Shown: piece by piece, positions 11,469-32,121 of the stretch
Layout of the letters: every line of letters starts with the position of its first letter
How positions within the stretch are numbered: position 1 is the stretch's first letter
From: a virus
Direction: 5' to 3' (one strand)
IMG/VR virus record: IMGVR_UViG_3300005611_000123
Coordinates: 1-32,887 of that record
DNA: 32,887 nt
Position numbers and translations under genes: made by a program
The notes under the pieces: model-generated
The model's input: the letters and a program-made list of their open reading frames with translations, nothing else
Databases searched by the model: none
Told to the model about the DNA's origin: nothing

Positions 11469-11840
11469 ATGTTACAGAAAACAAGAGCTATCAGTTCGAA
11501 AGCGAAACGTTTGGTGGATATACTTGTATCCCAAGGGTGTTCCATAACAGATGCCTCGAAACTAGCAGGATACAAAGGAAATTCGGCAAGAGTAACTGCA
11601 CACAAGATGCTACGAAAACCAGAGGTACAAGAGTATATGTATCAAGAGATTCAACGAACGACTGGATTGCATGCGACTAAGGCTCTGAATCGAATAAGTA
11701 CTCTGTCCCAATCAGCAAAATCAGAGTATGTTCAGTTAGAGGCTAGTAAAGATATATTGGATCGTGCTGGTTTCAAGTCGCCTGACAAACACCAACACTT
11801 GGTGGCTGGTAACTTTAGTATCAACATAGATCTAACGTAA
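11469..11840 (+). CDS. terS: Terminase small subunit-like DNA-binding protein
   Basis: AAGGAG RBS. KAKRLVDILVSQGCSITDASKLAGYKGNSARVTAHKMLRKPEVQEYM follows the Terminase_2-type N-terminal HTH pattern (F...Y...g.n.t.Aa..AGY....A...g..lL..p.V..yi). Confidence 0.65.
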   Translation: MLQKTRAISSKAKRLVDILVSQGCSITDASKLAGYKGNSARVTAHKMLRKPEVQEYMYQEIQRTTGLHATKALNRISTLSQSAKSEYVQLEASKDILDRAGFKSPDKHQHLVAGNFSINIDLT

Positions 11841-12003: not shown

Positions 12004-12309
12004 ATGGCTTATAAAACACAGGCATGGACAAGGAAAGAAGGTAAGAACCCTAAAGGTGGTTTAAATGCTAAAGGTCGTGCGTCTTATAAGAAAGGTACAT
12101 TAAAGCCCCCAGTTAAGAGTGGTGATAATCCTAGACGTGCATCATTCCTAGCCAGAATGGGTAATATGGCAGGACCAGAATATAAAGATGGTAAACCAAC
12201 GAGATTACTATTATCATTGAGGGTGTGGGGTGCTAGTAGTAAAGCAGATGCTCGAGCAAAAGCAAAGGCTATGTCAAAAAGATTAAAGGCTAAGAAGGAG
12301 AAAAGATAA
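12004..12309 (+). CDS. Small polycationic protein 1 (conserved basic phage/bacterial family of unknown function)
   Basis: 29 K/R versus 6 D/E in 101 aa (counted). Motifs WTRKEGKNPKGGLNAKGR and NPRRASFLARM recur in a DUF-type family I recall from phage genomes; the family number is not certain. Confidence 0.7.
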   Translation: MAYKTQAWTRKEGKNPKGGLNAKGRASYKKGTLKPPVKSGDNPRRASFLARMGNMAGPEYKDGKPTRLLLSLRVWGASSKADARAKAKAMSKRLKAKKEKR

Positions 12310-12773
12310 TGGCCCCGATTGTCCCAGTTGTATTGGCTGCTGCAAGATTGTACAAGTATGGCAAGAAGCCAGGCAAGAAAGTATTGCAATATATTCTAAA
12401 GAAAAGAAAGATATACAAAGGAGAGAAGGCTTCTAAATCTAGGTCAAGTAGAGGAGAAGAACTACCTAGCATTGATTCTAACAGATTGCTTGCTAGAAAG
12501 ATTTATGGACCAAAGCTAAAACCTACCAATACTAAAGATCTAAGAGAATTTAAATTTAAAAGAATGCTGGGGGATGAAAGACGACCTTTTGTCAGTAATT
12601 ATGAAAAACAAGCCGACAGCTTTATCTACCAAGGACTTACAGGCAATCGTAATTGGCAAAGTTTAATGAAGAAAGCGGAGAAAAGAAAGGGTTACAACCC
12701 TAGAAACCCAAAGCGACATTATAATAGAAGGCTCAGAAAAATAGAAATTGCTGACGAGTTTAATGATTTATAG
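12309..12773 (+). CDS. Polycationic low-complexity protein 2
   Basis: TAATG coupling to the previous ORF. Visibly K/R-rich throughout (KYGKKPGKKVLQYILKKRKIYKGEKASKSRSSR...). Confidence 0.65.
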   Translation: MAPIVPVVLAAARLYKYGKKPGKKVLQYILKKRKIYKGEKASKSRSSRGEELPSIDSNRLLARKIYGPKLKPTNTKDLREFKFKRMLGDERRPFVSNYEKQADSFIYQGLTGNRNWQSLMKKAEKRKGYNPRNPKRHYNRRLRKIEIADEFNDL

Positions 12774-12775
12774 CC

Positions 12776-13030
12776 ATGCCTACTAACTTAGATTCATATG
12801 GGACAATCTACCCAAAAAGGAAACCAGGTAAGCTCAGAAGCTTGCTACCACCTATACATACCTATCCAACAAAGAATCCTTTTATCAAAGAGATACCTAA
12901 ACGTCTAAAAGAAAAAAAGAAACAGAAAAAATCTTTGTTGTCAGAAATGAGAAACAAGTATAATGATAGTAATATAAAACCAATTGTTAAATTTAACCCA
13001 CCATTTATTGGTGTTAAAATAAAATTTTAG
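12776..13030 (+). CDS. Polycationic low-complexity protein 3
   Basis: Starts 2 nt after the previous stop. K/R/P-rich (PKRKPGKLRS..., KRLKEKKKQKKS). Confidence 0.6.
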   Translation: MPTNLDSYGTIYPKRKPGKLRSLLPPIHTYPTKNPFIKEIPKRLKEKKKQKKSLLSEMRNKYNDSNIKPIVKFNPPFIGVKIKF

Positions 13031-13039
13031 GAGATCACA

Positions 13040-13147
13040 ATGCCGATTAAAAAAACAGAAAAGAAATACATTGCACTTCAAAGAAAAAAAGAACAAGCTG
13101 GCAAGAAGATGCCAAAAGTAGATACTTATAAAAAGAAAAGTAAATAG
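13040..13147 (+). CDS. Polycationic mini-protein 4 (35 aa, MPIKKTEKKYIALQRKKEQAGKKMPKVDTYKKKSK)
   Basis: AGGAG lies 6 nt upstream. 14 K/R versus 3 D/E (counted). Below the track cutoff. Confidence 0.5.
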   Translation: MPIKKTEKKYIALQRKKEQAGKKMPKVDTYKKKSK

Positions 13148-13156
13148 GAGATTCCC

Positions 13157-13882
13157 ATGGCAATGACCAAAAGGCAAAAAGAAAGACAGGCTGAAAAAAT
13201 AGCAAAAGAAAAAAGAAGGGCAGCCTACGCACCTGGTGGTAAATGGGGTGATAGAGGTTTAGCTGGTGCTATCAATAGAGCCTTCCCTAACTTAAATAAA
13301 AAGAATGCATTACTGTTAGAAAAATACCCAGACATGAGAGGTCCTGGATATAGATCTACTGCTACTATGTCGGAGTCTGCTCCTCGAATAATTGATAGTA
13401 AACCACGTAGTCCTATTGGTAAAAAAGCAAGTGGTGCTAACAGAATGAGCAGAATGATTGATAGTAAACCACGTTCAAGACCTAAACCCAAATATGCTTA
13501 TGATTATGAAGCTGGTATGCTTAAAGCTATCGCTGGTAATGTTGCTAACATTGGTAGACCTAACCCTAATCTAAAAGCAAAATCCACTAAAGTAACTTCT
13601 GGAGATGATATAAATAGGTTGTTCATGACATCTAACGAACCTAAACGTGGACAAACATATGTGTCATCTGCAAAGTACAATGTATTTAACAATCAAAAAC
13701 TTGAAGGTCTTTCCCGTTCTGCTATTGGACACAACTATAAAGATGCTGTTCGAGAAGGAAAAAGAACTTTAAAAAGAGATAGGCATACTGCAAAAATGGT
13801 AGACTATAGTGGCAAAAGTTACTTTGGAACATTCTATGCACAAGGTGGTGGGGGGCCTGTACCTAATAAAAAAGGTAAGTAA
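13157..13882 (+). CDS. Polycationic low-complexity protein 5 (internal repeat I/MIDSKPRS)
   Basis: AGGAG RBS. An 18-nt exact direct repeat ATTGATAGTAAACCACGT occurs at 13391-13408 and 13457-13474. Basic and G/P/S-rich. Confidence 0.65.
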   Translation: MAMTKRQKERQAEKIAKEKRRAAYAPGGKWGDRGLAGAINRAFPNLNKKNALLLEKYPDMRGPGYRSTATMSESAPRIIDSKPRSPIGKKASGANRMSRMIDSKPRSRPKPKYAYDYEAGMLKAIAGNVANIGRPNPNLKAKSTKVTSGDDINRLFMTSNEPKRGQTYVSSAKYNVFNNQKLEGLSRSAIGHNYKDAVREGKRTLKRDRHTAKMVDYSGKSYFGTFYAQGGGGPVPNKKGK

Positions 13883-13884
13883 TT

Positions 13885-14424
13885 GTGCCTCTTAAATTTA
13901 AAAAGATATATGCTAATGATCCCAACAAGCCAGGAAGAAGAATTGTTGTTGGTCAAAAAACTTATGGGCAAGGTAAGGTAACATACAAAAGCTTTGGTCC
14001 TGTTCCAAAAAAATCTAAGTCTAGTGGTCCTAACTTTGTACAAAATTTTTTTAGATCTTTGTTTGGTCCAAAGATAGAGAAAGCGGCAGAAGAAAAACAC
14101 AAAGCTGCTGTTGAAAGAATGGGTGGTACTTATAGTGAGGCTACCAAGACAGGCACATTTCCTTTTGGGGACGCTACTGTTACTACTGGTCCTGTCAAAT
14201 TGTTTGATAATAATAATATATCTACAGAACCTTTTGTTATGAAAGACCTTGGTATGCCAGATCTTTCTAAGTATGATGAAGTATACAATAAAAAAAGATC
14301 TAGCTATAGAAATCAAATGGGTGAACAAGAGCAAATGATACGTGGATTTTATGATCCATATAAACCATCTACTAAACCACCTACACTGCTAGATGCAGTA
14401 GCGGCACTTATGAGTAAGAGATGA
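13885..14424 (+). CDS. Basic low-complexity protein 6 (GTG start)
   Basis: GTG lies 3 nt after the previous stop. No in-frame ATG nearby. K/P/G-rich N-terminal half. Confidence 0.6.
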   Translation: MPLKFKKIYANDPNKPGRRIVVGQKTYGQGKVTYKSFGPVPKKSKSSGPNFVQNFFRSLFGPKIEKAAEEKHKAAVERMGGTYSEATKTGTFPFGDATVTTGPVKLFDNNNISTEPFVMKDLGMPDLSKYDEVYNKKRSSYRNQMGEQEQMIRGFYDPYKPSTKPPTLLDAVAALMSKR

Positions 14425-14819
14425 GTACAGCAACAAAAACGAAGCCAGCATTATGGAAACGTATTGTTGCACGTATAAAATCACAATCATCACACGGAAC
14501 TAAAGCTGGTCAATGGTCAGCACGTAAAGCACAAGCAGCAGTAAAGGCATACAAGTCTGCTGGTGGTGGCTATAGTGGTGCAAAGAAACCATCCAACTCA
14601 TTATCGAAATGGTCAAAACAAAAATGGAGAACCAAGTCTGGTAAGAGGTCCAGTGATACTGGAGAAAGATATTTACCAGAAAAAGCTATCAAAAACTTAT
14701 CAGCGAGTGAATATGCGGCAACGTCAGCAAAAAAAAGAGAGGACAAGTCTAAAGGTAAACAGTTTAGTAAGCAACCGAAAGCTATTGCAAAGAAGGTACG
14801 TAAGTACAGAAAGACTTGA
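14421..14819 (+). CDS. Polycationic protein 7 (DUF5872-like by motif)
   Basis: ATGA coupling. GQWSARKAQAAVKAYKSAGGGYSG...NSLSKWSKQKWRTKSGKRS...ERYLPEKA matches my recollection of the DUF5872 pattern (WSArKaq.av..Yk..GGgY.g......L.kW..e.W.t.......rYLP). Confidence 0.7.
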   Translation: MSTATKTKPALWKRIVARIKSQSSHGTKAGQWSARKAQAAVKAYKSAGGGYSGAKKPSNSLSKWSKQKWRTKSGKRSSDTGERYLPEKAIKNLSASEYAATSAKKREDKSKGKQFSKQPKAIAKKVRKYRKT

Positions 14820-14820
14820 T

Positions 14821-14988
14821 ATGGCAGACATAGAACAACTTGAAAAACAGATTGCAGTTCTTACAAATGCTAATAAACTACTTACTGAAGTAATCGTTGA
14901 AAAAAACGAAATGATCCAATGTCTTGAATTATTATTAGAAGCAAAGGAATATAATGTCTACGAAATCAACAAAGAAAAACTTAACTAG
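14821..14988 (+). CDS. Small coiled-coil protein (55 aa, MADIEQLEKQIAVLTNANKLLTEVIVEKNEMIQCLELLLEAKEY...)
   Basis: The ATG lies 1 nt after the stop at 14819. The track lists a longer version from 14563 whose upstream part overlaps ORF 14421..14819 out of frame. Confidence 0.55.
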   Translation: MADIEQLEKQIAVLTNANKLLTEVIVEKNEMIQCLELLLEAKEYNVYEINKEKLN

Positions 14989-15190
14989 TAAACCAAAGCC
15001 ATTAACTAAAATGGATAAGGCTGAGGCAAGGGCAAAGATAATGGTTGCTAATGAACAAGAGAATGCAAAAGCAGAAAGATCTAGGCAATTGCAACAATAT
15101 ATTGAATATAAGATGCTTAAAGGCTATACAGAAGAAGAAGCAGAAAGAATGGGTAGAGAATTAATTATGGACAAGCATAACTATGACTAA
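14954..15190 (+). CDS. Hypothetical protein (basic N-terminus, helical)
   Basis: ORF track, in-operon. Confidence 0.55.
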   Translation: MSTKSTKKNLTSKPKPLTKMDKAEARAKIMVANEQENAKAERSRQLQQYIEYKMLKGYTEEEAERMGRELIMDKHNYD

Positions 15191-15380
15191 TATTTACAGA
15201 AAGGTAATGATTAAAGATTTAGATAAGTTACGTACTGTTGTAAAAACGCAACACATGAAAAACTATCCTACAGAAAAGATAACGGATTACGAAGCTGACA
15301 AGATCATAGAATCATTATCAGATACAACAAAAGAAAAACTTATTAAGCTAGCAGTAGATTATGGGATCACTGAACTATAA
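15183..15380 (+). CDS. Hypothetical protein
   Basis: ORF track. Overlaps its neighbours by 8 and 20 nt. Confidence 0.55.
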   Translation: MTNIYRKVMIKDLDKLRTVVKTQHMKNYPTEKITDYEADKIIESLSDTTKEKLIKLAVDYGITEL

Positions 15381-16866
15381 GCCAGATGGTGAAGTCCTAA
15401 AACTATTTATGAAAGATAATAGTTTTCTTAGAGGATTAAGAGGCCCAGTAGGTAGTGGCAAATCTGTTGCGTGCTGTATTGAATTATTTCGTAGAGCATT
15501 AATGCAAGAGCCAGGTGAAGATGGTATACGTAAATCTCGCTGGGCAGTGATAAGAAACACCAACCCCCAATTAAAAACTACAACAATAAAGACCTGGCTA
15601 GATTGGTTTCCAGAAGATGAATGGGGTCCATTCCATTGGTCTGTCCCATTTACTCATAGAATAAAAAGAGGTGATATAGATCTCGAAGTTATATTCTTGG
15701 CACTTGATAGACCAGAGGATGTAAAGAAACTACTATCTCTCGAACTAACTGGTGTATGGATTAATGAGGCAAGAGAAATACCAAAGTCTATTGTTGATGC
15801 TTGTTCTATGAGGGTAGGTCGTTTTCCTTCTATGAGAGATGGTGGTCCTACTTGGTATGGTGTGATTGCAGATACCAACCCACCAGATACAGAGCATTGG
15901 TGGTCTATACTATCTGGAGATTCTATATTGCCTGATTATATTTCCAAATCAGAAGCTAAGATGTTAGTTAAACCAGATAACTGGACTTTCTATAATCAAC
16001 CACCAGCTATGTTAGAAATCAAAGATAAGAATATGGAAGTTGCAGATTACGAAGATAATCCAGAAAAAGAAAATGGAAAGAACTTGACTGGAGATTATTA
16101 TAAAAATATTATCCGTGGTAAGACGAAATCATGGATAGATGTATATGTCCTAAATAAACTAGGACAAGTATCTGACGGTAAACCAGTCTACGAATCATTT
16201 GTACATAGTACTCATGTTGCCAAAGGTGATCTAGCTATTGCTGATGGTGTCCCAGTATTTGTAGGAATAGACTTTGGATTAACACCAGCTTGTGTGTTTG
16301 CACAAAGACTGCGTGGTAGATGGATTGTGTTTGATGAATTAGTTGCAGAGGATATGGGTATTGTACGATTCTCTGAGTTAATGAAACAACATATGGCACA
16401 ATATCTACCTCGTGAATTTATTATCTTTGGTGATCCTGCTGGAGATCAAAGAGTACAGACTGACGAATCAACACCATTCCAGATACTACGTGGTCGTGGA
16501 TTGAATGCTAGACCAGCACCATCTAATGATGTCGCTCTTAGATTAGAATCAGTAACTGCTGTATTAAACAGAATGACAGATGGAGAAAGTGGAATGTTAA
16601 TAGATCCGAAATGTACAAACTTAATTAAAGGTTTTGATGGTGGGTATCACTATAAACGTATGCAGGTAAGTGGTGAAAGGTATGATGACAGACCAAATAA
16701 GAATAGATTTTCCCACGTGCATGATGCTTTCCAATATTTGCTATTAGGTGCTGGAGAAGGTCGAGCATTGACAATCGGTCAAAAAGCTAGTAAACCTGTA
16801 ATAGCACGTAGAAATTTTGATGTGTTTAATGTTAAACCTAGATCTGTTTACGAAAGGATAAGATAA
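15361..16866 (+). CDS. terL: Terminase large subunit
   Basis: Walker A is GPVGSGKS. Walker B-like is LTGVWINEA. Nuclease-domain acidic motifs are VGIDFG, FGDPAG and HVHDAFQY. Size is 501 aa. Confidence 0.92.
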   Translation: MGSLNYKPDGEVLKLFMKDNSFLRGLRGPVGSGKSVACCIELFRRALMQEPGEDGIRKSRWAVIRNTNPQLKTTTIKTWLDWFPEDEWGPFHWSVPFTHRIKRGDIDLEVIFLALDRPEDVKKLLSLELTGVWINEAREIPKSIVDACSMRVGRFPSMRDGGPTWYGVIADTNPPDTEHWWSILSGDSILPDYISKSEAKMLVKPDNWTFYNQPPAMLEIKDKNMEVADYEDNPEKENGKNLTGDYYKNIIRGKTKSWIDVYVLNKLGQVSDGKPVYESFVHSTHVAKGDLAIADGVPVFVGIDFGLTPACVFAQRLRGRWIVFDELVAEDMGIVRFSELMKQHMAQYLPREFIIFGDPAGDQRVQTDESTPFQILRGRGLNARPAPSNDVALRLESVTAVLNRMTDGESGMLIDPKCTNLIKGFDGGYHYKRMQVSGERYDDRPNKNRFSHVHDAFQYLLLGAGEGRALTIGQKASKPVIARRNFDVFNVKPRSVYERIR

Positions 16867-17132
16867 TGTGCGTAGGTTCTTTACTATCCAAACCAAAAGC
16901 ACCAGCAGCTCCAGCTCCATTACCAGAAGATAGAACTGTAGCAGAACAAAGAGCAAGAGTACGTTCACAGCAAGAAAGAGATATAGCTGCAGAAAAACAA
17001 AAGCAATTTGAAATGAGAGTTGCTGCTTATACTGGCAAGCAAGGAAGAAAGTCTTTGCTATCTGGCAGAGGTGGTGGACAAGGATTTAATATTCAGGGCA
17101 ACTTGATGACACGTAATACACTGGGTGTATAA
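16866..17132 (+). CDS. Small conserved head-module protein (proline/alanine stretch, then GRKSLLSGRGG motif)
   Basis: TAATG coupling on both sides. Composition and position between terL and portal are as in many podoviruses. Confidence 0.6.
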   Translation: MCVGSLLSKPKAPAAPAPLPEDRTVAEQRARVRSQQERDIAAEKQKQFEMRVAAYTGKQGRKSLLSGRGGGQGFNIQGNLMTRNTLGV

Positions 17133-18737: not shown

Positions 18738-19436
18738 ATGCATAAATGCGTTCTTGTTATAAGTGATCTACACATTCCGTATCATCACAAAGATTCTTTT
18801 GAGTTCTTAAAAGAAATAAAAAAACAATTTAAACCAGATACAATCATTAACATTGGGGACTTGTTGGATTTCCATGCAATATCAATGCATGAACATAATC
18901 CAGATCTCCCATCTGCTGGTGATGAGTTGACTTTAGCAAAGGGATATATTAGAGAATTAGAATCTTTATTCCCAGAAGTTACTGAGGTCCACTCTAATCA
19001 TAGTAGTTTAGTATATCGCAGGGCATTAAAGTATGGAATGTCTGCACAATTCCTAAGACCTTATGGTGATTTTCTTGGAACAAAGAAATGGAAGTGGGTT
19101 GACGATATTACACTAAAGATGAGCAATGGTAAACGTGTACACTTTACTCATGGAAAATCTGCAGATGTATTAAAGGTTTCACAAACTATGGGCATGTCTG
19201 CTGTACAAGGACACTATCATACAAAATTCTGTATAAGTTACTGGGCAAATCCAGATGATTTATACTGGGGTATGAATGTGGGTTGTCTAATCAATCAAAA
19301 GTCTATGGCATTTAGCTATGCTAAAAACTTTAGTACAAGATTTGTATTAGGTTGTGGAATTATAATTAATGGAGTACCAAGGTTATTACCTATGGTGTTA
19401 GATAATAATGGTAATTGGATAAAGGAAATAGTATGA
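18738..19436 (+). CDS. Calcineurin-like metallophosphoesterase
   Basis: Motifs in canonical order: ISDLH, GDLLDFH, SNHS, THG, GHYH. GAGGAG RBS. Confidence 0.75.
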   Translation: MHKCVLVISDLHIPYHHKDSFEFLKEIKKQFKPDTIINIGDLLDFHAISMHEHNPDLPSAGDELTLAKGYIRELESLFPEVTEVHSNHSSLVYRRALKYGMSAQFLRPYGDFLGTKKWKWVDDITLKMSNGKRVHFTHGKSADVLKVSQTMGMSAVQGHYHTKFCISYWANPDDLYWGMNVGCLINQKSMAFSYAKNFSTRFVLGCGIIINGVPRLLPMVLDNNGNWIKEIV

Positions 19437-19669: not shown

Positions 19670-19934
19670 CTTAATAGGTCTTGACAATATACAGAGGTCT
19701 GCCGAAGAAGAACAATCACTTAATGAATCTTTTTCTATTGCTTTTAGTACACCTACTGGGGTAAAAGTATTAGAATACTTACGTTCAATATCTATTGAAA
19801 CAGTTGGTGGACCACAGATAGGGAAAGATCATCTCATGCATTTAGAAGGTCAACGATATATTGTTGGTCTAATACAACGCAGAGTAAACAAAGGTAAAAG
19901 TCAAAAAATAGTAAAGGATAAATCTAATGAATGA
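19650..19934 (+). CDS. Bbp19-like small head-module protein
   Basis: GGAGA lies 6 nt upstream of the ATG at 19650; the track start at 19638 is also possible. FSTPTGVKVLEYLR...LMHLEGQRYIVGLIQRRV resembles the Bbp19 family as I recall it. Confidence 0.55.
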   Translation: MSQEVNNLIGLDNIQRSAEEEQSLNESFSIAFSTPTGVKVLEYLRSISIETVGGPQIGKDHLMHLEGQRYIVGLIQRRVNKGKSQKIVKDKSNE

Positions 19935-20685
19935 AAATGAAAATATGGAAAATCAGGTAGAAGAATCAGAACAAGATCAAGGTGAGCCTACTACTACAGA
20001 ACCTCTTGAAAGACCAGATTTTATTCCAGAGAAATTTTGGAATACTGAAACTGGTGAAATCAATATAGAAGAATTTGGTAAGTCTTATCTTAATCTTGAG
20101 AAGTATGTTGGTGGTAAAAAAGATGAATTACGAGAAGTAATTATCAATGAACTATCAGAAGAAGCTGATTCAGAAAAACCAGAATCTTATGAACTACCAG
20201 CATTACCAGAAGGTATAACTGAAGAAATGCTTTATGAAAATCCTATGGCACAATGGTGGGCAGAGCATTGTGATGAAAATGCTTACTCACAAGAAGTATT
20301 TGAAGAAGGCATTAATAAGTACATTGATAGCTTTACCTCACAACAGCCAGATCTAAATAGAGAAATGGAAAAGCTAGGTGAGAATGCTAACGCTAGATTA
20401 GATGCAGTCAATTCTTGGGCAAGTAGTTTTTTTAGTCCAGAAGAATATGAAGCTGTAGCTACTACACTAGGTGCAACAGCAGAAGGCATTGAGGCATTAG
20501 AACGTATGATGCAAACAACAGTGCAATCTGTATCAAGAGCAAATACTGTAGCACAACCAGATAGACCATTAACACTTGATGATGTTCGTAACATGATGAA
20601 AGACAAAAGATATTTTGATCCTAAAGAAAGAGATCAATCTTTTGTAAGAAAAGTAGACGAAGCATTTGCGAGGCTATACAGATAA
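19927..20685 (+). CDS. Scaffolding protein (by position and composition)
   Basis: Acidic, helical, 252 aa, between portal and capsid genes. Confidence 0.55.
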   Translation: MNENENMENQVEESEQDQGEPTTTEPLERPDFIPEKFWNTETGEINIEEFGKSYLNLEKYVGGKKDELREVIINELSEEADSEKPESYELPALPEGITEEMLYENPMAQWWAEHCDENAYSQEVFEEGINKYIDSFTSQQPDLNREMEKLGENANARLDAVNSWASSFFSPEEYEAVATTLGATAEGIEALERMMQTTVQSVSRANTVAQPDRPLTLDDVRNMMKDKRYFDPKERDQSFVRKVDEAFARLYR

Positions 20686-25980: not shown

Positions 25981-28364
25981 TGGCTTTAAAGAAAGAACAA
26001 TCCCAAGTTAGTTATAGTTCACAGATTGGTGTTAATCGTGGTACTGGCTATCAATCATTAGCAAATGCCTATAAACAACAAGCTAATGTTGTAGACAATC
26101 TTGTTAATGCTTACGCATCTAAAGCATTAGATGAAATGAAAATACGTGGAAAGAAGATAGGGCAAGAGGCTGCTGAAAATGTAAACTTTATGGAAGAAGT
26201 TGTTTCCTGGAAAGATCCTGTAACTGGTAATCAAGAACAGATAACGGTAAGAAAACCTATATCTGAAATAGCAAATGTTTTTTCTACACGTACAGCACAA
26301 GAGGCATATGATGATATACTTGCTAAAAGATATATCCAGGAAGCACAAGTTAGTGCTGAAAATATTATTAATCAAGAAAAAGCTTTAGCACTATCTAATA
26401 ACTTATCTGAGGCACAATATGACGTTTTAGTAAGAAACAAGTTAGATAAATTGTACAAAGTCCTGCCAACAGATGTTGGTAATTATGTAGAAACATATAG
26501 TGAAGAAAGAAGGCAAGAAGGTTTCTACACTGTTATGACAAACTATGATAGACACTTAAAACAGTTAGAAAATGTTAATGTAAAAAACACATACTCTAAA
26601 AACACCACATTGTTAGCAGAAGGTTTGATGACTAAAGAACAATTTGATGAGAGTGTGGCTGATTTAAAGAGTTCAGAGTATTACAAAGAAAATGCTGGAA
26701 TACTTGAAGATGGAATAAATACAGCAATATATACCAATGATACTCTTGGGTCTATACGTGTAGATAACTGGACTACAGCTAGCATGAAAGACCTAAATAC
26801 ACTATCGACTAATTTAGCTGCATTAAATAGTGTTGCTCTTGGGTCTGCTTCTTCTGCAACTATTATGGTAAATGGTTCAGAGCAAATAATTACTAGAGAA
26901 GATTTAGTAAGAAACCTTGGAACACTAGACCAAATTAACACTTGGCAAAATTCTGTTTCAGAACAACTTACAAAAATTAACAGCTACCTATCTTCTCAAT
27001 CTAACAATGGGAATATAGAAAGCATTATTAAAGCTAATATAACAAACTTTCATGAAAGTGGTACTGCACCTATACTCTATGGAGAAACAAGATCTAAAGT
27101 CGAAGATTGGTTTGGGTCATTTAATAGTCAAGAAGATATAGCAGAGCTATACCAAGCAAGGTATGGGATACCTATTCGTAGAGATAGCAATGCAACTGAT
27201 GGGCCTCTTAATTCTTTTGATGTGACAAGACTAGCCATAGATAATGGTGTACTCCCTACCAATGTTAAAAATACCATCCAATCTAATTTTGGTACGTTTA
27301 ATCCTTCTGGAATACAAAACTTATATAGTAGTGGAATTATAGATTATATCACTAACAGTCAAATAAAGATACCTAGAACAGTAAACAAAACTACTGCTGA
27401 TGGTGGTATGTCAGTAGAAATGGAATGGGACACTGTGTACACAAGTCGCATAAATGAATTAGGGTTAAGCAATGATATAGTGCAAAGAATTAAATTTGTA
27501 GATGAACGTTTGGATGCTGGATATTCTATTGATGATATAGCTAGCCAATGGGAAAGAAGAAGTGATGAAAAATTAACTTTAGAAAGAGCATTGGAAGTAT
27601 ATGGTGGTGGTAAATATGATACACGAGCAAAGTTTTATAATGAAATTAGAAAGTCTGTAGACAAAGTATCCAAAGAACTACTTGGGCATGATCCTAATGT
27701 TTTATTATTCAATGCAGAAATAATAGATTTATTTGAAACAGATTATATCAATGATGTTCGCAGTGGTATCTTTACATCAATAAACAAAGACAGTATTACT
27801 AAAGCTGCTAAAAGTTTTATGGGTAAATTAATTGGCACTAACAATAGCGAAACAACTTCCCAGTATGGTTACTCAAGTGCTATGTGGAGCGAAAGACTTG
27901 GTGTGTTTGATACTAACAATAGAGAAGTTAGCTTTGGCGTTGACACAAAACTATTTACAAAATTTCCACCAGAAAACTATTACAACCTTGGTGGTGAAAT
28001 TCAAGACACCTGGATAGATGCTTACGTACACAATATTATTAATGAGCAGTCTAAAGAAGTAAATGATCCAGGCAATATATATAATGGCGTTAGAACAGAT
28101 AATACATGGGGGAAAATTGGGCAAGATGATATGGTTCTTAGACAAAGACTAAGATTAACACCAATAGATGATATGACACCACCTATATATAATGTTGTCT
28201 TTATGGGTGATAATGGAGTGATCCATATGTTGCATGACAAAGATACTGATATACCTTTGGAAATTGATTTACAGCAAGAGTATCTTGACCGAGGGAAAAA
28301 GATGATTGAGGAATCTATAGATAGAAAAAGAAAAATAAATATGGATATTGAAGATGGCTCTTGA
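25980..28364 (+). CDS. Internal virion / ejection protein (gp15-like position)
   Basis: 794 aa, TAATG coupling, between the gp14-like and largest core-like ORFs. No catalytic motif seen. Confidence 0.45.
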   Translation: MALKKEQSQVSYSSQIGVNRGTGYQSLANAYKQQANVVDNLVNAYASKALDEMKIRGKKIGQEAAENVNFMEEVVSWKDPVTGNQEQITVRKPISEIANVFSTRTAQEAYDDILAKRYIQEAQVSAENIINQEKALALSNNLSEAQYDVLVRNKLDKLYKVLPTDVGNYVETYSEERRQEGFYTVMTNYDRHLKQLENVNVKNTYSKNTTLLAEGLMTKEQFDESVADLKSSEYYKENAGILEDGINTAIYTNDTLGSIRVDNWTTASMKDLNTLSTNLAALNSVALGSASSATIMVNGSEQIITREDLVRNLGTLDQINTWQNSVSEQLTKINSYLSSQSNNGNIESIIKANITNFHESGTAPILYGETRSKVEDWFGSFNSQEDIAELYQARYGIPIRRDSNATDGPLNSFDVTRLAIDNGVLPTNVKNTIQSNFGTFNPSGIQNLYSSGIIDYITNSQIKIPRTVNKTTADGGMSVEMEWDTVYTSRINELGLSNDIVQRIKFVDERLDAGYSIDDIASQWERRSDEKLTLERALEVYGGGKYDTRAKFYNEIRKSVDKVSKELLGHDPNVLLFNAEIIDLFETDYINDVRSGIFTSINKDSITKAAKSFMGKLIGTNNSETTSQYGYSSAMWSERLGVFDTNNREVSFGVDTKLFTKFPPENYYNLGGEIQDTWIDAYVHNIINEQSKEVNDPGNIYNGVRTDNTWGKIGQDDMVLRQRLRLTPIDDMTPPIYNVVFMGDNGVIHMLHDKDTDIPLEIDLQQEYLDRGKKMIEESIDRKRKINMDIEDGS

Positions 28365-31300
28365 AATAGGACCAACACCAGAAAGACCTTTGGTTAATAG
28401 GTATGTACCTAATTTAGAATACAAAAGACCAGCAGTAGTAGACCAAGGTTTTATATCAGATGTAAAAGATGAGTTTGCACTAACATGGATTGGGTCATTA
28501 CTACAAAATACATTTGTATTGGATCAAAAGATTTACAAAGAAAAACCAGAAGATCCTAACTATGACCCATTAGATCCAGATAACTTACGTGGTTTTGAAG
28601 AATATGCTGATAAGTTCTTAGACGTACGTAATAAAGAACATCATGATTTTATTAAACAACAGATCTGGAACAACAATGCAAGAAGAACAAGACTAGATGC
28701 TAGTGATAGAGTATGGTCGCCTATCCTTGTTTCTGCTCTTGCAGATCCTATTACTTACGTACCTATACCTCTTGCTCGAGGAGTAGGTTTTGCCACAAGA
28801 TTTGCTAAAGGTGCTGCTATTGGTGGTGGTTTAGTTGCAGCCACAGAACCTATTAGAAGAACACAAGACCCTACATCTACTGGCGAAGAAACAGCTTTCA
28901 TTATTGGTGGTGCTGGATTAATTAGTGGTTTGCTATCTGGTATAGCTGGTAATGTAGTTAGTAGAGGTACTGGAAGAATTACAACAAAAAATCCACCAGG
29001 ACCAGTTACTAAAAAACTTGCTAAAAAAGTTAGTGATAACAATACCTATAATAAATACCATAAGGAAATGGATATTGAAGATGGTTTAATTCAATGGGAA
29101 GATCAAGGATTCAAATCATTAAGAGATAACAAAACAATACAATATAAAGTTGAATACATTGACGCTAAAAAATTCAAAGGTTCACCTCATGCTAAATTTG
29201 ATAGCAAGACAAACACTATGTATCTAAACGATTTACTTATTAGAAAAGATTATGAAACTGGTGGCTTTATGACCAGGGGTAAAACTTTTCCTATGGATAA
29301 AACTTTGTTTAAATCGCCAGATGATGTTGCTTTGTTAGAAATGAAAGCAGCAGAAATAAGAGAAATATACACACCATTTAATTCTTGGAAAAAAACAAAT
29401 CCAAAAGGTACGACAACCCAATATAATAACGAAATATATATGCAAGCTTATGCTGACTTAACTACTGGTGCTGGTGGTATTGATTTAAACAAACACAACC
29501 CATTATTAAAATGGGGAAAAATGACAAGCACTTATCAAAAAATTGTTACAGATATTACAGACCCAGAATGGCAAGACTTTGTGCATAGGCTAGCTTATAA
29601 TGGTTCTATAAGGATGAAAGGTGGAACACCGAATGAATCAGCTTTAATTACTTCTAAGATTGAATTAAATACAAAATTAACAAAAACACAACAACTTATA
29701 ACATCAGCTTATTTAAAAGACAGAGGGTTAGATCCTAAGTCTGTTAGAGGTGATCTAGGGATTAACTGGCAATACTCTTTATCTAATGTTGGTGATAGAG
29801 CAGATGCATTAATGGATAGAATTAATGGATCTACTGATGTTACACAAGTTAGGCAAATGGATGTATACTCAAGAGAAATAACTTATGGTTTAATGGATAA
29901 TGATTATGCTGGAACATTAACTAAGTCACAACAATACGTAATTAAAGCAATAAGAAAAGATACTAATGACTTTGCTCAGTTTGCTGAGAATAATAATTTA
30001 TTTGAAACAACAGGTGCTTATACTAAGAAAGTAAAAGATGGTGAAGAAATTGTTGGCAAACTGAATGATATATTAGAAAACCAAATTCTAACTGTAGAGC
30101 AATCAAAAGTATTTAGAGAAATGTACCAAAGAAAGTTTACTGAACTTAAGGCATTAAGAGCAATTGCTAAAGGAAAAGATCTTAAGAATAAGTATCGCAG
30201 ACAAGAAAACTATTTGCCATTGTTTCCTAAAGTACCATCTATTGTTAAAGAAACAGCAGAGTATAAAAAGAGATGGGAGAATGCCATTAAAGAAACACCA
30301 TGGTATAGCGAACTAACAGAACAAGAAGTATCTGCTTTAGCACAGAAAAGAGTAGATTTTGATTTAGACCTTGGTGAATATGGTGAAGAAGCTATCCTTA
30401 AAGGATTTGTTGGTAATGTAAACAATCCATATCGTTTAGGTGCATCACAGTTTTTAAAAAGAGAGATAGACGTACCTTATCATTTGTTACGTAAACATGG
30501 TGTTATGGATTATATGGAAGATAATGCATTTACTATCTACCATAGATACATGAATGTAGCAACTAAGGTAAGATCAATGACTGAAAAGTTTGGTGATCCG
30601 TTTGCTTCAAAAGAAAAAGATCTACAATTTATTAGGCTAGTGTTAAAAGAAGGTAAAACACCAGCAGGAATGAAAAAGGTTAATGCAGGGTTACAAGGTT
30701 TTGATAATCTTATTGAAAGAATGTATTATACCTTTAATACAGCAGATCCAGCAGGTGTGTCAAGGCAATCGGCTGACATATTAAGAGGTGTTTCTGCTTT
30801 AGGTGGAATGGGTGGTGTTGTCCCATCAAGCTTATCAGAAATGGCTATGCCTTTTATGGTGCATGGATTAAGCAATGCATTTCGTGGATTAAAAACATAT
30901 GTAACTTCCCATGGGCCTATATTTAAAAAACTAGTAGGTGATGTCGTAGAGGAGTTGGGTGAAGATGAAGCTCTATTCTTTGGATCTATGAATAGATTTA
31001 TAGCTGAAAATGGCTTGCATGCTAGCTCTAGTCGTGGTGGTAAGGTATTAGGTGCAATACATAATGGTGTCAATAAAGCACAAATTCCATTCTATTGGGC
31101 AAACCTTTTAACACCTTGGACTAACTGGTGGAAAAGATTTAGTAGAGTAATAGGTTATCAAAGGTTTATTAGAGATGCTTACATTGTAACTGACAGAGTA
31201 GATCCTTTAACAGGGAAGGCTATTAGTCCAGAGCAAGTAGCACAAAAACTAAAAGAATTAAAAAAGTACGGAATTGACCAAAAAACTGCAAGGTTGATTA

Positions 31301-32121
31301 CTACCATGCCTATTGAAAGACAAGGTAAAAACTTTTTACCAAATACTTTAGCCTGGAATGAAGTTAAAGGTGGTGCTGTAGCTAGAAGAAAATTAAAAGT
31401 TGCTGTCTATATGTCTGGTGAAAATACAATTATTACCCCAGATATTACTGATACACCAGATATAGTAGCTGGTGCTACAACATTTACAGGTAAAGAATGG
31501 GATGCAATCTTTGCTAACCCTTTGGTTAATAGAGTATTTAAACCACAAAAAACACAGTATGGGTATAAAGTAAATGCAACATGGGCAAGTTTACCATTTC
31601 AATTTATGCCATGGGCATTTGCAGCTACAAACAGAATGCTAGTAGGTGGTGGACAATCTTTAAGTAATGGGCAAGGTCAAGTAGTGGTTGCTATGGGTAT
31701 GATGTTATTACTTGGATCTTTAGTTACTTATGTTAAGAATCCTACAGCTTTTGAAAATATGACTAATGAAGAACTTGTAGCTGAATCTATAGAAAGATCT
31801 GGTCTACTTACTATTTTTGGAGATCTTAACTTCATGCTCGAAAGTGTAACTGAAGGCTTTACAGACACTCCAATTGGTGTTAGACCTTTATTAGGATTAG
31901 AGCCTAGGTTTGGTAATGTGGATAGTGGCAGTGCATTAGGTGAAATACTTGGACCAGGTCCTAGCATACCAATAGACCTAGTAAGAATTTATGCTGGGGA
32001 CTATGATTATAAAACAGATCATGCTATGTTAAGAAGAATGCTGCCATTACAAAACTTAATATTCTTCAAAAGATTATTAAGACCATTATATGATCAAGGC
32101 ATAGAGGAGATATTGGAATGA
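28354..32121 (+). CDS. Large internal virion / ejection protein (gp16-like position) with glycine-rich hydrophobic segments
   Basis: ATG at 28354 (the track uses TTG at 28348). Hydrophobic segments are GAAIGGGLVAAT, AFIIGGAGLISGLLSGIAGNVV and VVVAMGMMLLLGSLVTYV. It precedes the fiber gene. Confidence 0.5.
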   Translation: MALEIGPTPERPLVNRYVPNLEYKRPAVVDQGFISDVKDEFALTWIGSLLQNTFVLDQKIYKEKPEDPNYDPLDPDNLRGFEEYADKFLDVRNKEHHDFIKQQIWNNNARRTRLDASDRVWSPILVSALADPITYVPIPLARGVGFATRFAKGAAIGGGLVAATEPIRRTQDPTSTGEETAFIIGGAGLISGLLSGIAGNVVSRGTGRITTKNPPGPVTKKLAKKVSDNNTYNKYHKEMDIEDGLIQWEDQGFKSLRDNKTIQYKVEYIDAKKFKGSPHAKFDSKTNTMYLNDLLIRKDYETGGFMTRGKTFPMDKTLFKSPDDVALLEMKAAEIREIYTPFNSWKKTNPKGTTTQYNNEIYMQAYADLTTGAGGIDLNKHNPLLKWGKMTSTYQKIVTDITDPEWQDFVHRLAYNGSIRMKGGTPNESALITSKIELNTKLTKTQQLITSAYLKDRGLDPKSVRGDLGINWQYSLSNVGDRADALMDRINGSTDVTQVRQMDVYSREITYGLMDNDYAGTLTKSQQYVIKAIRKDTNDFAQFAENNNLFETTGAYTKKVKDGEEIVGKLNDILENQILTVEQSKVFREMYQRKFTELKALRAIAKGKDLKNKYRRQENYLPLFPKVPSIVKETAEYKKRWENAIKETPWYSELTEQEVSALAQKRVDFDLDLGEYGEEAILKGFVGNVNNPYRLGASQFLKREIDVPYHLLRKHGVMDYMEDNAFTIYHRYMNVATKVRSMTEKFGDPFASKEKDLQFIRLVLKEGKTPAGMKKVNAGLQGFDNLIERMYYTFNTADPAGVSRQSADILRGVSALGGMGGVVPSSLSEMAMPFMVHGLSNAFRGLKTYVTSHGPIFKKLVGDVVEELGEDEALFFGSMNRFIAENGLHASSSRGGKVLGAIHNGVNKAQIPFYWANLLTPWTNWWKRFSRVIGYQRFIRDAYIVTDRVDPLTGKAISPEQVAQKLKELKKYGIDQKTARLITTMPIERQGKNFLPNTLAWNEVKGGAVARRKLKVAVYMSGENTIITPDITDTPDIVAGATTFTGKEWDAIFANPLVNRVFKPQKTQYGYKVNATWASLPFQFMPWAFAATNRMLVGGGQSLSNGQGQVVVAMGMMLLLGSLVTYVKNPTAFENMTNEELVAESIERSGLLTIFGDLNFMLESVTEGFTDTPIGVRPLLGLEPRFGNVDSGSALGEILGPGPSIPIDLVRIYAGDYDYKTDHAMLRRMLPLQNLIFFKRLLRPLYDQGIEEILE

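Follow-up and report, generated by a model that had tools for sequence, protein, structure and literature searches.

A hypervariable slot of polycationic genes between the terminase genes of Hodr-like pelagiphages

The IMG/VR virus record IMGVR_UViG_3300005611_000123, analysed here over positions 1 to 32,887 and referred to as the window, carries seven consecutive plus-strand open reading frames (ORFs A–G, positions 12004–14819) for basic proteins between its genes for the small (terS) and large (terL) terminase subunits. Comparison with related loci identified this block as an accessory, fast-turnover gene slot of pelagiphages related to Pelagibacter phage EXVC031P ‘Hodr’, framed by two conserved families represented by A and G. 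The slot is hypervariable and dispensable, and the block found in the window is one state of it and not a fixed seven-gene unit. We tentatively read its products as late, virion-associated, DNA-directed polycations analogous to the internal proteins of phage T4, a reading to which we assign a probability of roughly 35%.

A variable slot between two conserved families

The ORF listing of the window agreed exactly with the seven ORFs of the first-pass annotation and placed them among the following genes of the terminase region.

11469–11840, plus strand: terS, small terminase subunit, 123 aa; upstream border of the slot
12004–12309, plus strand: ORF A, 101 aa, net charge +23, DUF6321 domain and Lys-rich tail; upstream anchor
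12309–12773, plus strand: ORF B, 154 aa, net +26, ORFan
12776–13030, plus strand: ORF C, 84 aa, net +16, lineage-specific
13040–13147, plus strand: ORF D, 35 aa, net +11, 40% K+R, lineage-specific micro-ORF
13157–13882, plus strand: ORF E, 241 aa, net +33, fast-diverging, length-polymorphic
13885–14424, plus strand: ORF F, 179 aa, net +14, GTG start, fast-diverging, the least cationic
14421–14819, plus strand: ORF G, 132 aa, net +31, DUF5872-like, two modules; downstream anchor
14821–14988, plus strand: ORF H, 55 aa, net −5, acidic; outside the cationic set
14954–15190, plus strand: ORF I, 78 aa, net +4, conserved small slot gene
15183–15380, plus strand: ORF J, 65 aa, net +1, conserved; 20-nt overlap with the start of terL
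15361–16866, plus strand: terL, large terminase subunit, 501 aa; downstream border of the slot

The products of A–G sum to 926 aa with a net charge of +154 (+0.166 per residue), against −183 over 8,965 aa (−0.020 per residue) for the remaining 36 genes of the window. In net charge per residue, six of these ORFs surpass all other genes, the exception being F, which at +0.078 lies inside the range of ordinary genes. The description of all seven as strongly basic was upheld by their net charges (+11 to +33) and isoelectric points (9.8–11.2) and has to be relaxed for F, and the residue counts given for two of them (29 K/R versus 6 D/E in the 101-aa A, 14 versus 3 in the 35-aa D) were reproduced. 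The further statement that the block splits terS from terL proved correct as to the terS gene upstream, which is a member of PF03592 (Terminase_2; 38 bits, cutoff 26.1) and matched three terS PHROGs including phrog_2538 and phrog_51, but incomplete, as ten ORFs intervene, including H, I and J.

ORF A is a member of Pfam family DUF6321 (PF19846), with a score of 65.7 bits (cutoff 28.5; E = 5.9e-18) and its residues 13–75 aligned to positions 1–72 of the 72 in the profile; it was also assigned to phrog_4689. At least 8,000 homologues of A were retrieved, and every one among the matches listed carries PF19846. ORF G likewise has at least 8,000 homologues, with a mean column identity of 87%, and consists of an N-terminal half matching phrog_17747 (E = 5e-12) and a C-terminal half matching phrog_14910 (E = 5e-33). 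Many homologues of both proteins originate from Tara and other marine samples. G itself showed no match to DUF5872 (PF19197) at E ≤ 10, and homologues 83% identical to it reached 23.2–23.3 bits with a cutoff of 27.5; because these scores stay under the cutoff, G is considered a sub-threshold relative of DUF5872 and not a formal member. As had been noticed from the sequence, only the first and the last gene fall into recognisable families, and Pfam and NCBIfam profiles run on all ten ORFs between terS and terL yielded nothing beyond DUF6321.

The label of low complexity had to be withdrawn for these two proteins, since their alignments show many invariant W, Y, G and P positions and A has a confidently predicted folded core. 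In the AlphaFold2 model of A, a helix-hairpin-helix-helix core at about residues 40–100 was predicted with a local distance difference score (pLDDT) of 85–92, together with a disordered basic N-terminus, and the model of G was of moderate quality (mean pLDDT 65.5). Neither sequence profiles nor fold searches revealed a solved structure related to A or G, and the Foldseek neighbours of A in the viral structure library BFVD were DUF6321 proteins only.

To define the slot in relatives, 80 IMG/VR loci were collected via TerL, 42 of which hold both terS and terL, separated by 721–3,866 bp. In closer relatives, with TerL 76–92% identical to that of the window, A and G are 77–90% identical (A 82–90%) and are thus conserved about as well as TerL; terS is 49–78% identical in relatives, and in distant ones the identity of A and G drops to 45–66%. 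For B–F, no tblastn match at 1e-3 was obtained in these loci and none against 50,697 phage genomes. B had no relative in IMG/VR, B and C had no family match in the profile libraries, and C was found only in near-identical contigs. For E, only three homologues (88–95% identical) were present among 5.8 billion proteins, and for F three cluster representatives among 1.84 billion.

A total absence of B–F homologues from relatives, as these searches first suggested, had to be softened. In loci L096 and L097, whose TerL, G and J are 91%, 82% and 79% identical to those of the window, the E slot holds a protein 28% identical to E (E = 5e-9, net +40), and the F slot, directly upstream of G in L096, holds one 34% identical to F (E = 2e-23, net +19). 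As these positional orthologues of E and F have diverged beside a conserved TerL, the middle of the cassette evolves by gain and loss, replacement and deep allelic divergence, while each allele is itself constrained. Gain or loss was seen directly for B, whose presence or absence amounts to a clean indel of one gene between genomes that are nearly identical: B is missing exactly from contigs L082 and L083, where the stop codon of A overlaps the start of C. At this indel (12309–12773 versus L082:5925 and L083:2139) the junction shares the ATG start codon only (TAATG/GCC...GCCATG/CCT). ORF E displays in-frame length polymorphism among alleles 88–96% identical (P0001–P0003), namely a 6-aa RSSSTN insertion and a 3-aa deletion, both placed around a duplicated ‘R(I/M)IDSKPRS’ motif.

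Positive charge accompanies this turnover. The 302 ORFs lying in the terS–terL gap of 43 genomes clustered into 88 families, 61 of them singletons. With the families of H, I and J set aside, 77% of the gap ORFs exceed +0.10 net charge per residue (median about +0.19–0.20) and 8% are net negative; among the singletons the proportion above +0.10 is 67%. For ORFs of the same size from other parts of these loci, the median is +0.014, with 11% above +0.10 (Mann–Whitney p ~5e-50, a value which overstates independence because the sequences are related, the effect being still very large). The longest polycations of relatives reach 588 aa at +92 and 422 aa at +78. Strongly cationic slot ORFs are absent in five of the 42 relatives. 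That B–F stay polycationic and largely disordered while their sequences turn over points to a function by bulk electrostatics and not by fold.

Other cargo in the slot of relatives comprises an HNH_3 endonuclease, a PF00959 lysozyme, an extensin-like PF06904 peptidase-domain protein and a C-terminally anchored membrane protein. The lysozyme or the PF06904 proteins occupy the gap in the more distant relatives L060–L078. The HNH_3 protein (PF13392, 28.1 bits, cutoff 24.8) is basic, 73–75 aa long and encoded just upstream of G (L027:3928-4149, L029:7207-7434 and six other loci), and may favour cassette exchange as a nuclease involved in homing or associated with packaging. In 24 loci (e.g. L004:2352-2537 and L009:5798-5983), A is followed by a member of a His-rich family of 45–87 aa with repeated ‘G-K/T-x-H ... 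MPDGSLHTGAKH’ motifs; a similar ORF is present in phage HTVC103P. The family has no Pfam match and may bind metal.

Outside the cationic set, H starts 1 nt past the stop codon of G, overlaps I and is coiled-coil-like; it was gene-called in L082, L088 and L096 and is 46–79% identical in close relatives. I is present in 33 and J in 42 of the 43 genomes. Both are near-neutral, matched no family and may be packaging accessory proteins.

Coding reality and genomic context

The tight packing ascribed to the block was confirmed, 99.4% of the interval being tiled by coding sequence of A–G. A and B overlap by 1 nt (TAATG), F and G by 4 nt (ATGA), and the remaining gaps measure 2–9 nt. Ribosome-binding sites (RBSs) of the AGGAG type stand upstream of B, D and E, and F has a weaker AAGG. 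No plus-strand terminator was found inside the block, promoter-like sites showed no excess over chance, and no Rfam family was detected in the window. As A–G lie on the same strand as terS, terL, portal and head genes, with overlapping stops and starts, their context is that of a late operon, and from this position we infer late expression.

Codon-level comparison with the near-identical metagenomic sibling contigs L082–L084, which carry the three homologues of E, gave dN/dS ratios of 0.10–0.12 for A, 0.08–0.12 for E, 0.04 for F and 0.06 for G. The value of 0.30 for C rests on nine substitutions only, and that of 0.11 for D on 12 substitutions against the more distant L084, the two closest contigs offering too few sites. 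For B there was no comparator; an identical cassette including B was present in two metagenomes of independent origin (ENA and JGI), and D was gene-called in sibling contigs. The ratios are comparable to those of terS, terL and one upstream early gene. A–G are thus real genes under purifying selection, as the first-pass annotation had argued from their packing and RBSs, and since the signal of selection sits in the plus frames, its dismissal of the antisense ORFs as shadows is also justified.

All seven proteins are basic and lie on the disordered side of the charge–hydropathy boundary, and none contains a hydrophobic segment of transmembrane (TM) grade. No N-terminal motif common to A–G was evident beyond MA/MP. 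Profile, fold and hydropathy searches uncovered no catalytic, TM or known structural motif, in keeping with what had been seen by inspection.

These data also bear on the idea that the ORFs are non-functional, i.e. chance, decaying or selfish filler whose charge is a by-product of an AAA/AAG-rich strand. AT skew does peak in this region (0.24–0.28 versus ~0.13–0.16 downstream), mononucleotide shuffles of it leave long stop-free runs (mean 76, maximum 199 codons), and an HNH_3 endonuclease gene sits in the slot of relatives. Set against this are the dN/dS ratios of 0.04–0.12 in the plus frames, the tiling with RBSs, the high conservation of A and G over thousands of sequences, the length of ORFs in relatives (up to 588 aa) and the fact that the charge excess is missing from other small ORFs of the same genomes. 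This explanation is largely refuted and we consider it very improbable.

With a TerL 80% identical to that of Hodr, the window is derived from a relative of this phage. Among annotated large terminases, its TerL is 41–43% identical to those of Methylophilales phage MEP301, Cronobacter phage vB_CsaP_Ss1, Burkholderia phage BcepC6B and other podoviruses. The head–tail module is T7-like, with portal, an acidic scaffold-like protein, a major head protein and tubular tail proteins A and B, and three homologues of internal virion proteins (gp14/15/16-like), one of which contains an endolysin domain. Neither a holin nor a spanin nor a stand-alone endolysin was recognised with PHROGs in the near-complete genome (~33.3 kb); the sole lysozyme-like domain lies within the 1,257-aa internal virion protein encoded at 28348–32121. 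A prohead protease family was not found in the head module.

Two further genes of this region deserve mention. Between terL and portal, positions 16866–17132 (plus strand) encode an 88-aa protein starting with ‘MC’ and ending in a Gly-rich C-terminus, without a PHROG match, which we take to resemble T7 gp6.7 in size and position. A metallophosphoesterase gene (18738–19436, plus strand; phrog_221, E = 1e-62) has portal on one side and the gene of the scaffold-like protein (19927–20685, net −33) on the other, an unusual placement for an enzyme gene.

Related modules in other marine phages

DUF6321 was detected in 488 phage records, essentially all aquatic, its carriers including Synechococcus and Prochlorococcus myoviruses, pelagiphages, Methylophilales phages, and Microcystis and Planktothrix phages. 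In HTVC103P, HTVC035P, HTVC033P and MEP402, G is split into two genes. HTVC033P most closely parallels the window in number, as gp36–gp42 are again seven consecutive ORFs (+15 to +22), which extend from a gene of the G N-terminal type to one of the A type and abut an amidase gene. In MEP402 (Zobellviridae), gp48–gp51 carry +15, +24 (A-type), +17 (G N-terminal type) and +23 (G C-terminal type) and are located immediately upstream of terL and portal. Runs of small cationic ORFs follow peptidase M15 and TM proteins in HTVC035P and Greip, and in HMO-2011 a gene of the G C-terminal type is found ~1.8 kb upstream of terL amid membrane proteins and lysozyme. HTVC033P, MEP402, HTVC035P and Greip thus share with the window A- and G-type modules joined by unrelated small ORFs (+12 to +24 each) in consecutive order on the late strand; they differ from it in lineage, in neighbours (amidase in HTVC033P, terL in MEP402) and in their split G.

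All cassette ORFs of these four phages are annotated as hypothetical proteins. Greip gp45 (L087:2996-3247) bears the annotation ‘Gp114 RecA-like recombination protein’ but is a DUF6321 protein of 83 aa; this name seems to have been propagated from ‘gp114’ of Syn9 and probably represents a mis-annotation. In the gp54–gp58 region of HTVC103P (L085:3675-6060), the split G-type genes are embedded among large structural genes and flanked by a 416-aa Lys-rich protein (net +24, amphipathic N-terminus) and a very acidic 184-aa protein (net −32), a charge pairing which may be meaningful.

Such neighbourhoods raise the question of whether some or all of the polycations serve lysis: set free as infection ends, they would displace divalent cations from lipopolysaccharide, destabilise the outer membrane and replace or assist spanins. 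Protamine, polylysine and disruptin destabilise the outer membrane in this manner. In T7 the spanin genes sit between genes 18 and 19, which counts for this explanation. So do the failure to recognise a holin, spanin or stand-alone endolysin in the window's near-complete genome, the lysozyme, peptidase-like and TM proteins beside basic ORFs in the terS–terL gap of distant relatives, and the lysis-type neighbours in HTVC033P, HTVC035P, Greip and HMO-2011. A precedent is the disruptin of phage phiKT (gp28; 56 aa, net +7), an amphipathic helical peptide encoded between endolysin and holin in a spanin-less podovirus (bioRxiv 10.1101/515445). The cassette resembles it in encoding cationic phage proteins whose modules neighbour lysis genes in several marine lineages. 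However, disruptin is a single 56-aa peptide, whereas the window has seven ORFs of far higher charge, of which only D is shorter than 80 aa; the small ones have low amphipathicity and little hydrophobic content, the helical moment (muH) being 0.37 for C and 0.38 for D as compared with 0.89 for LL-37, so that a short, cationic, strongly amphipathic helix of the disruptin type is not apparent in the cassette. The longest members measure 241 aa in the window and 588 aa in relatives, A and G represent conserved domains and no generic peptides, no lysis gene is adjacent in the window, and the cyanomyovirus DUF6321 protein described below is encoded among virion and packaging genes and was detected in virions. 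On balance, a role in lysis, though the chief competitor of the internal-protein reading, appears unlikely.

The cyanophages provide the link to virions. In Syn9 (gp114), S-P4 (gp060) and S-SM1 (SSM1_115), DUF6321 forms the C-terminus of a protein of 443–529 aa with ~25% K+R and a net charge of +54 to +63 (SSM1_115: 495 aa, net +54, DUF6321 at E = 2.8e-22). ORF A is 45–49% identical to these C-termini (E ~1e-16). In all three phages the gene is located two genes downstream of the T4-type small terminase gene gp16. The expectation that terminase genes are normally adjacent is accordingly not always fulfilled, terS of T4-like cyanophages being followed by other genes including that of the DUF6321 protein; likewise, T7 genes 18 and 19 are separated by 18.5/18.7.

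The cyanophage protein corresponds to gene cluster T4-GC119 of Sullivan et al. (2010; PMC3037559), for which purified S-SM1 particles yielded 13 peptide counts (Suppl. Table 8, PMC3037559). The T4-GC119 gene is absent from the S-PM2 genome and present in that of Syn9, where the protein was undetected in particles; its size is 276–2,985 nt over 15 cyanophages, and in the main text its product figures as a hypothetical protein of what may be a mobile cassette (PMC3037559). This length variation is the same size plasticity as that of the present slot. T4-GC119 and the window thus have in common DUF6321, a strong polycation, a position just downstream of terS and a length highly variable between relatives. 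They differ in that T4-GC119 is a myoviral, single long protein with a C-terminal DUF6321, detected in virions, whereas the window presents a string of small ORFs.

A more extensive relationship was sought and rejected. By eye, the N-terminal half of G (‘WSARKAQAAVKAYKSAGGGY’) resembled an internal ‘WPSAYASGALVKCRKKG’ segment of cyanophage gp114; hhalign gave this a probability of 0.1%, and BLAST was not significant. The notion of T4-GC119 as a concatenation of pelagiphage cassette modules failed as well, as only DUF6321 matches, and homology of the other cassette ORFs to the rest of the cyanophage protein was not demonstrable.

Possible functions of the polycations

No described function for such a cassette was found in the searchable literature, as the first-pass annotation had supposed. 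No paper mentioning DUF6321 or EXVC031P was retrieved, DUF5872 appeared only in an algal-virus gene list, and no pelagiphage virion proteome was found. A functional parallel is offered by T4, whose internal proteins IPI, IPII and IPIII are small, basic, late and dispensable and are encoded at a locus that varies greatly between related phages. These proteins enter the capsid together with the DNA and are injected along with it; IPI* counteracts a restriction system of the host. The cassette shares with them basicity, a late context (its timing judged by position), dispensability and hypervariability of the locus. It differs in showing no sequence similarity and in occupying a slot between terS and terL, and no N-terminal capsid-targeting sequence of the kind removed by a prohead protease was identified in it.

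By this analogy, the cassette genes would be co-expressed late with the terminase and head genes. Their products would act mainly by bulk positive charge on a polyanion, most probably phage DNA, and would become internal virion proteins, as DNA-condensing counter-ions and/or as co-travellers of the DNA into the next host. Counted in favour are the selection on the genes, the charge excess confined to the slot and preserved through turnover, the late context, the virion detection of T4-GC119 in S-SM1, which may carry over to A by homology, and the recurrence of A and G modules beside terL in unrelated phage families and beside terS in cyanomyoviruses. Of the working hypotheses in the first-pass annotation (co-packaged DNA-condensing proteins, ejected effectors, packaging cofactors), co-packaging would gain indirect support from the S-SM1 detection.

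Several points weigh in the other direction. DNA binding, packaging of the window's own proteins and any role after ejection are matters that we infer. Virion support comes from one proteome of a distant myovirus through a shared domain of ~70 residues, the Syn9 homologue went undetected, and polycations, being sticky, could be carried along during particle purification. The phage already has internal virion proteins of the T7 type, neither a prohead protease in the head module nor a capsid-targeting signal was identified, and structure and fold searches gave no DNA-binding fold. Because five of 42 relatives lack cationic slot ORFs, the function is not essential for packaging, and in several lineages the same modules adjoin lysis and not terminase genes.

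The recurrence beside terminase genes would also suit a transient packaging cofactor, a proteinaceous polyamine substitute that condenses the concatemer or aids terS and terL and is not retained in the capsid, as would the position of the block between these two genes and its translational linkage with them. Such a cofactor seems quite improbable, however, in view of the five relatives that package without cationic ORFs, the placement of the modules elsewhere in the genomes of HTVC033P, HTVC035P and HTVC103P, and the retention of the S-SM1 homologue in virions.

Hypervariability could instead reflect an arms race with SAR11 hosts, the proteins acting inside the cell as non-packaged nucleic-acid-binding effectors that coat the DNA or RNA of host or phage; suggested roles are nucleoid compaction, shut-off and protection from nucleases or defence systems. 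The combination of gain, loss and replacement with alleles of 28–34% identity at 91% TerL identity, under purifying selection within alleles, is the pattern of a host-interaction locus, and the slot is dispensable in some relatives. Against effectors speak the location in the late packaging and structural operon, away from the early minus-strand genes, and the lack of an anti-defence or DNA-binding domain in profile scans (PADLOC was not searched). SAR11 genomes are, moreover, poor in known defence systems. We regard this explanation as doubtful; one further observation in its favour is that terminase-adjacent metaviromic islands are recurrent in marine phages (PMC3909814).

In these under-recruiting islands of marine phages, the small and large terminase genes are conspicuous for reasons that have been obscure (Mizuno et al., 2014; PMC3909814), and it is plausible that a hypervariable terminase-flanking cassette contributes to them.

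Extended beyond the window, the reading of the products as internal virion polycations leads to a broader and rather unlikely proposal, namely that abundant marine phages carry modular, exchanging, protamine-like polycations with DUF6321- or DUF5872-type core modules, loaded into the capsid as a counter-ion layer of ‘phage chromatin’ and injected with the genome. The hosts concerned would be SAR11, OM43, SAR116, roseobacters and picocyanobacteria. If this were true, the polycations would represent a previously unrecognised class of virion component, and the hypervariability of the slot would help to explain terminase-associated metaviromic islands. Few viruses on Earth are as abundant as pelagiphages and cyanophages, each of the two anchor families comprises at least 8,000 protein clusters, and cultured carriers exist in Hodr, HTVC033P, MEP402 and S-SM1. 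Should the function be DNA condensation, capsid charge neutralisation, co-injected protection or outer-membrane attack, models of packaging, ejection or lysis for phages of the oligotrophic ocean would gain a new component.

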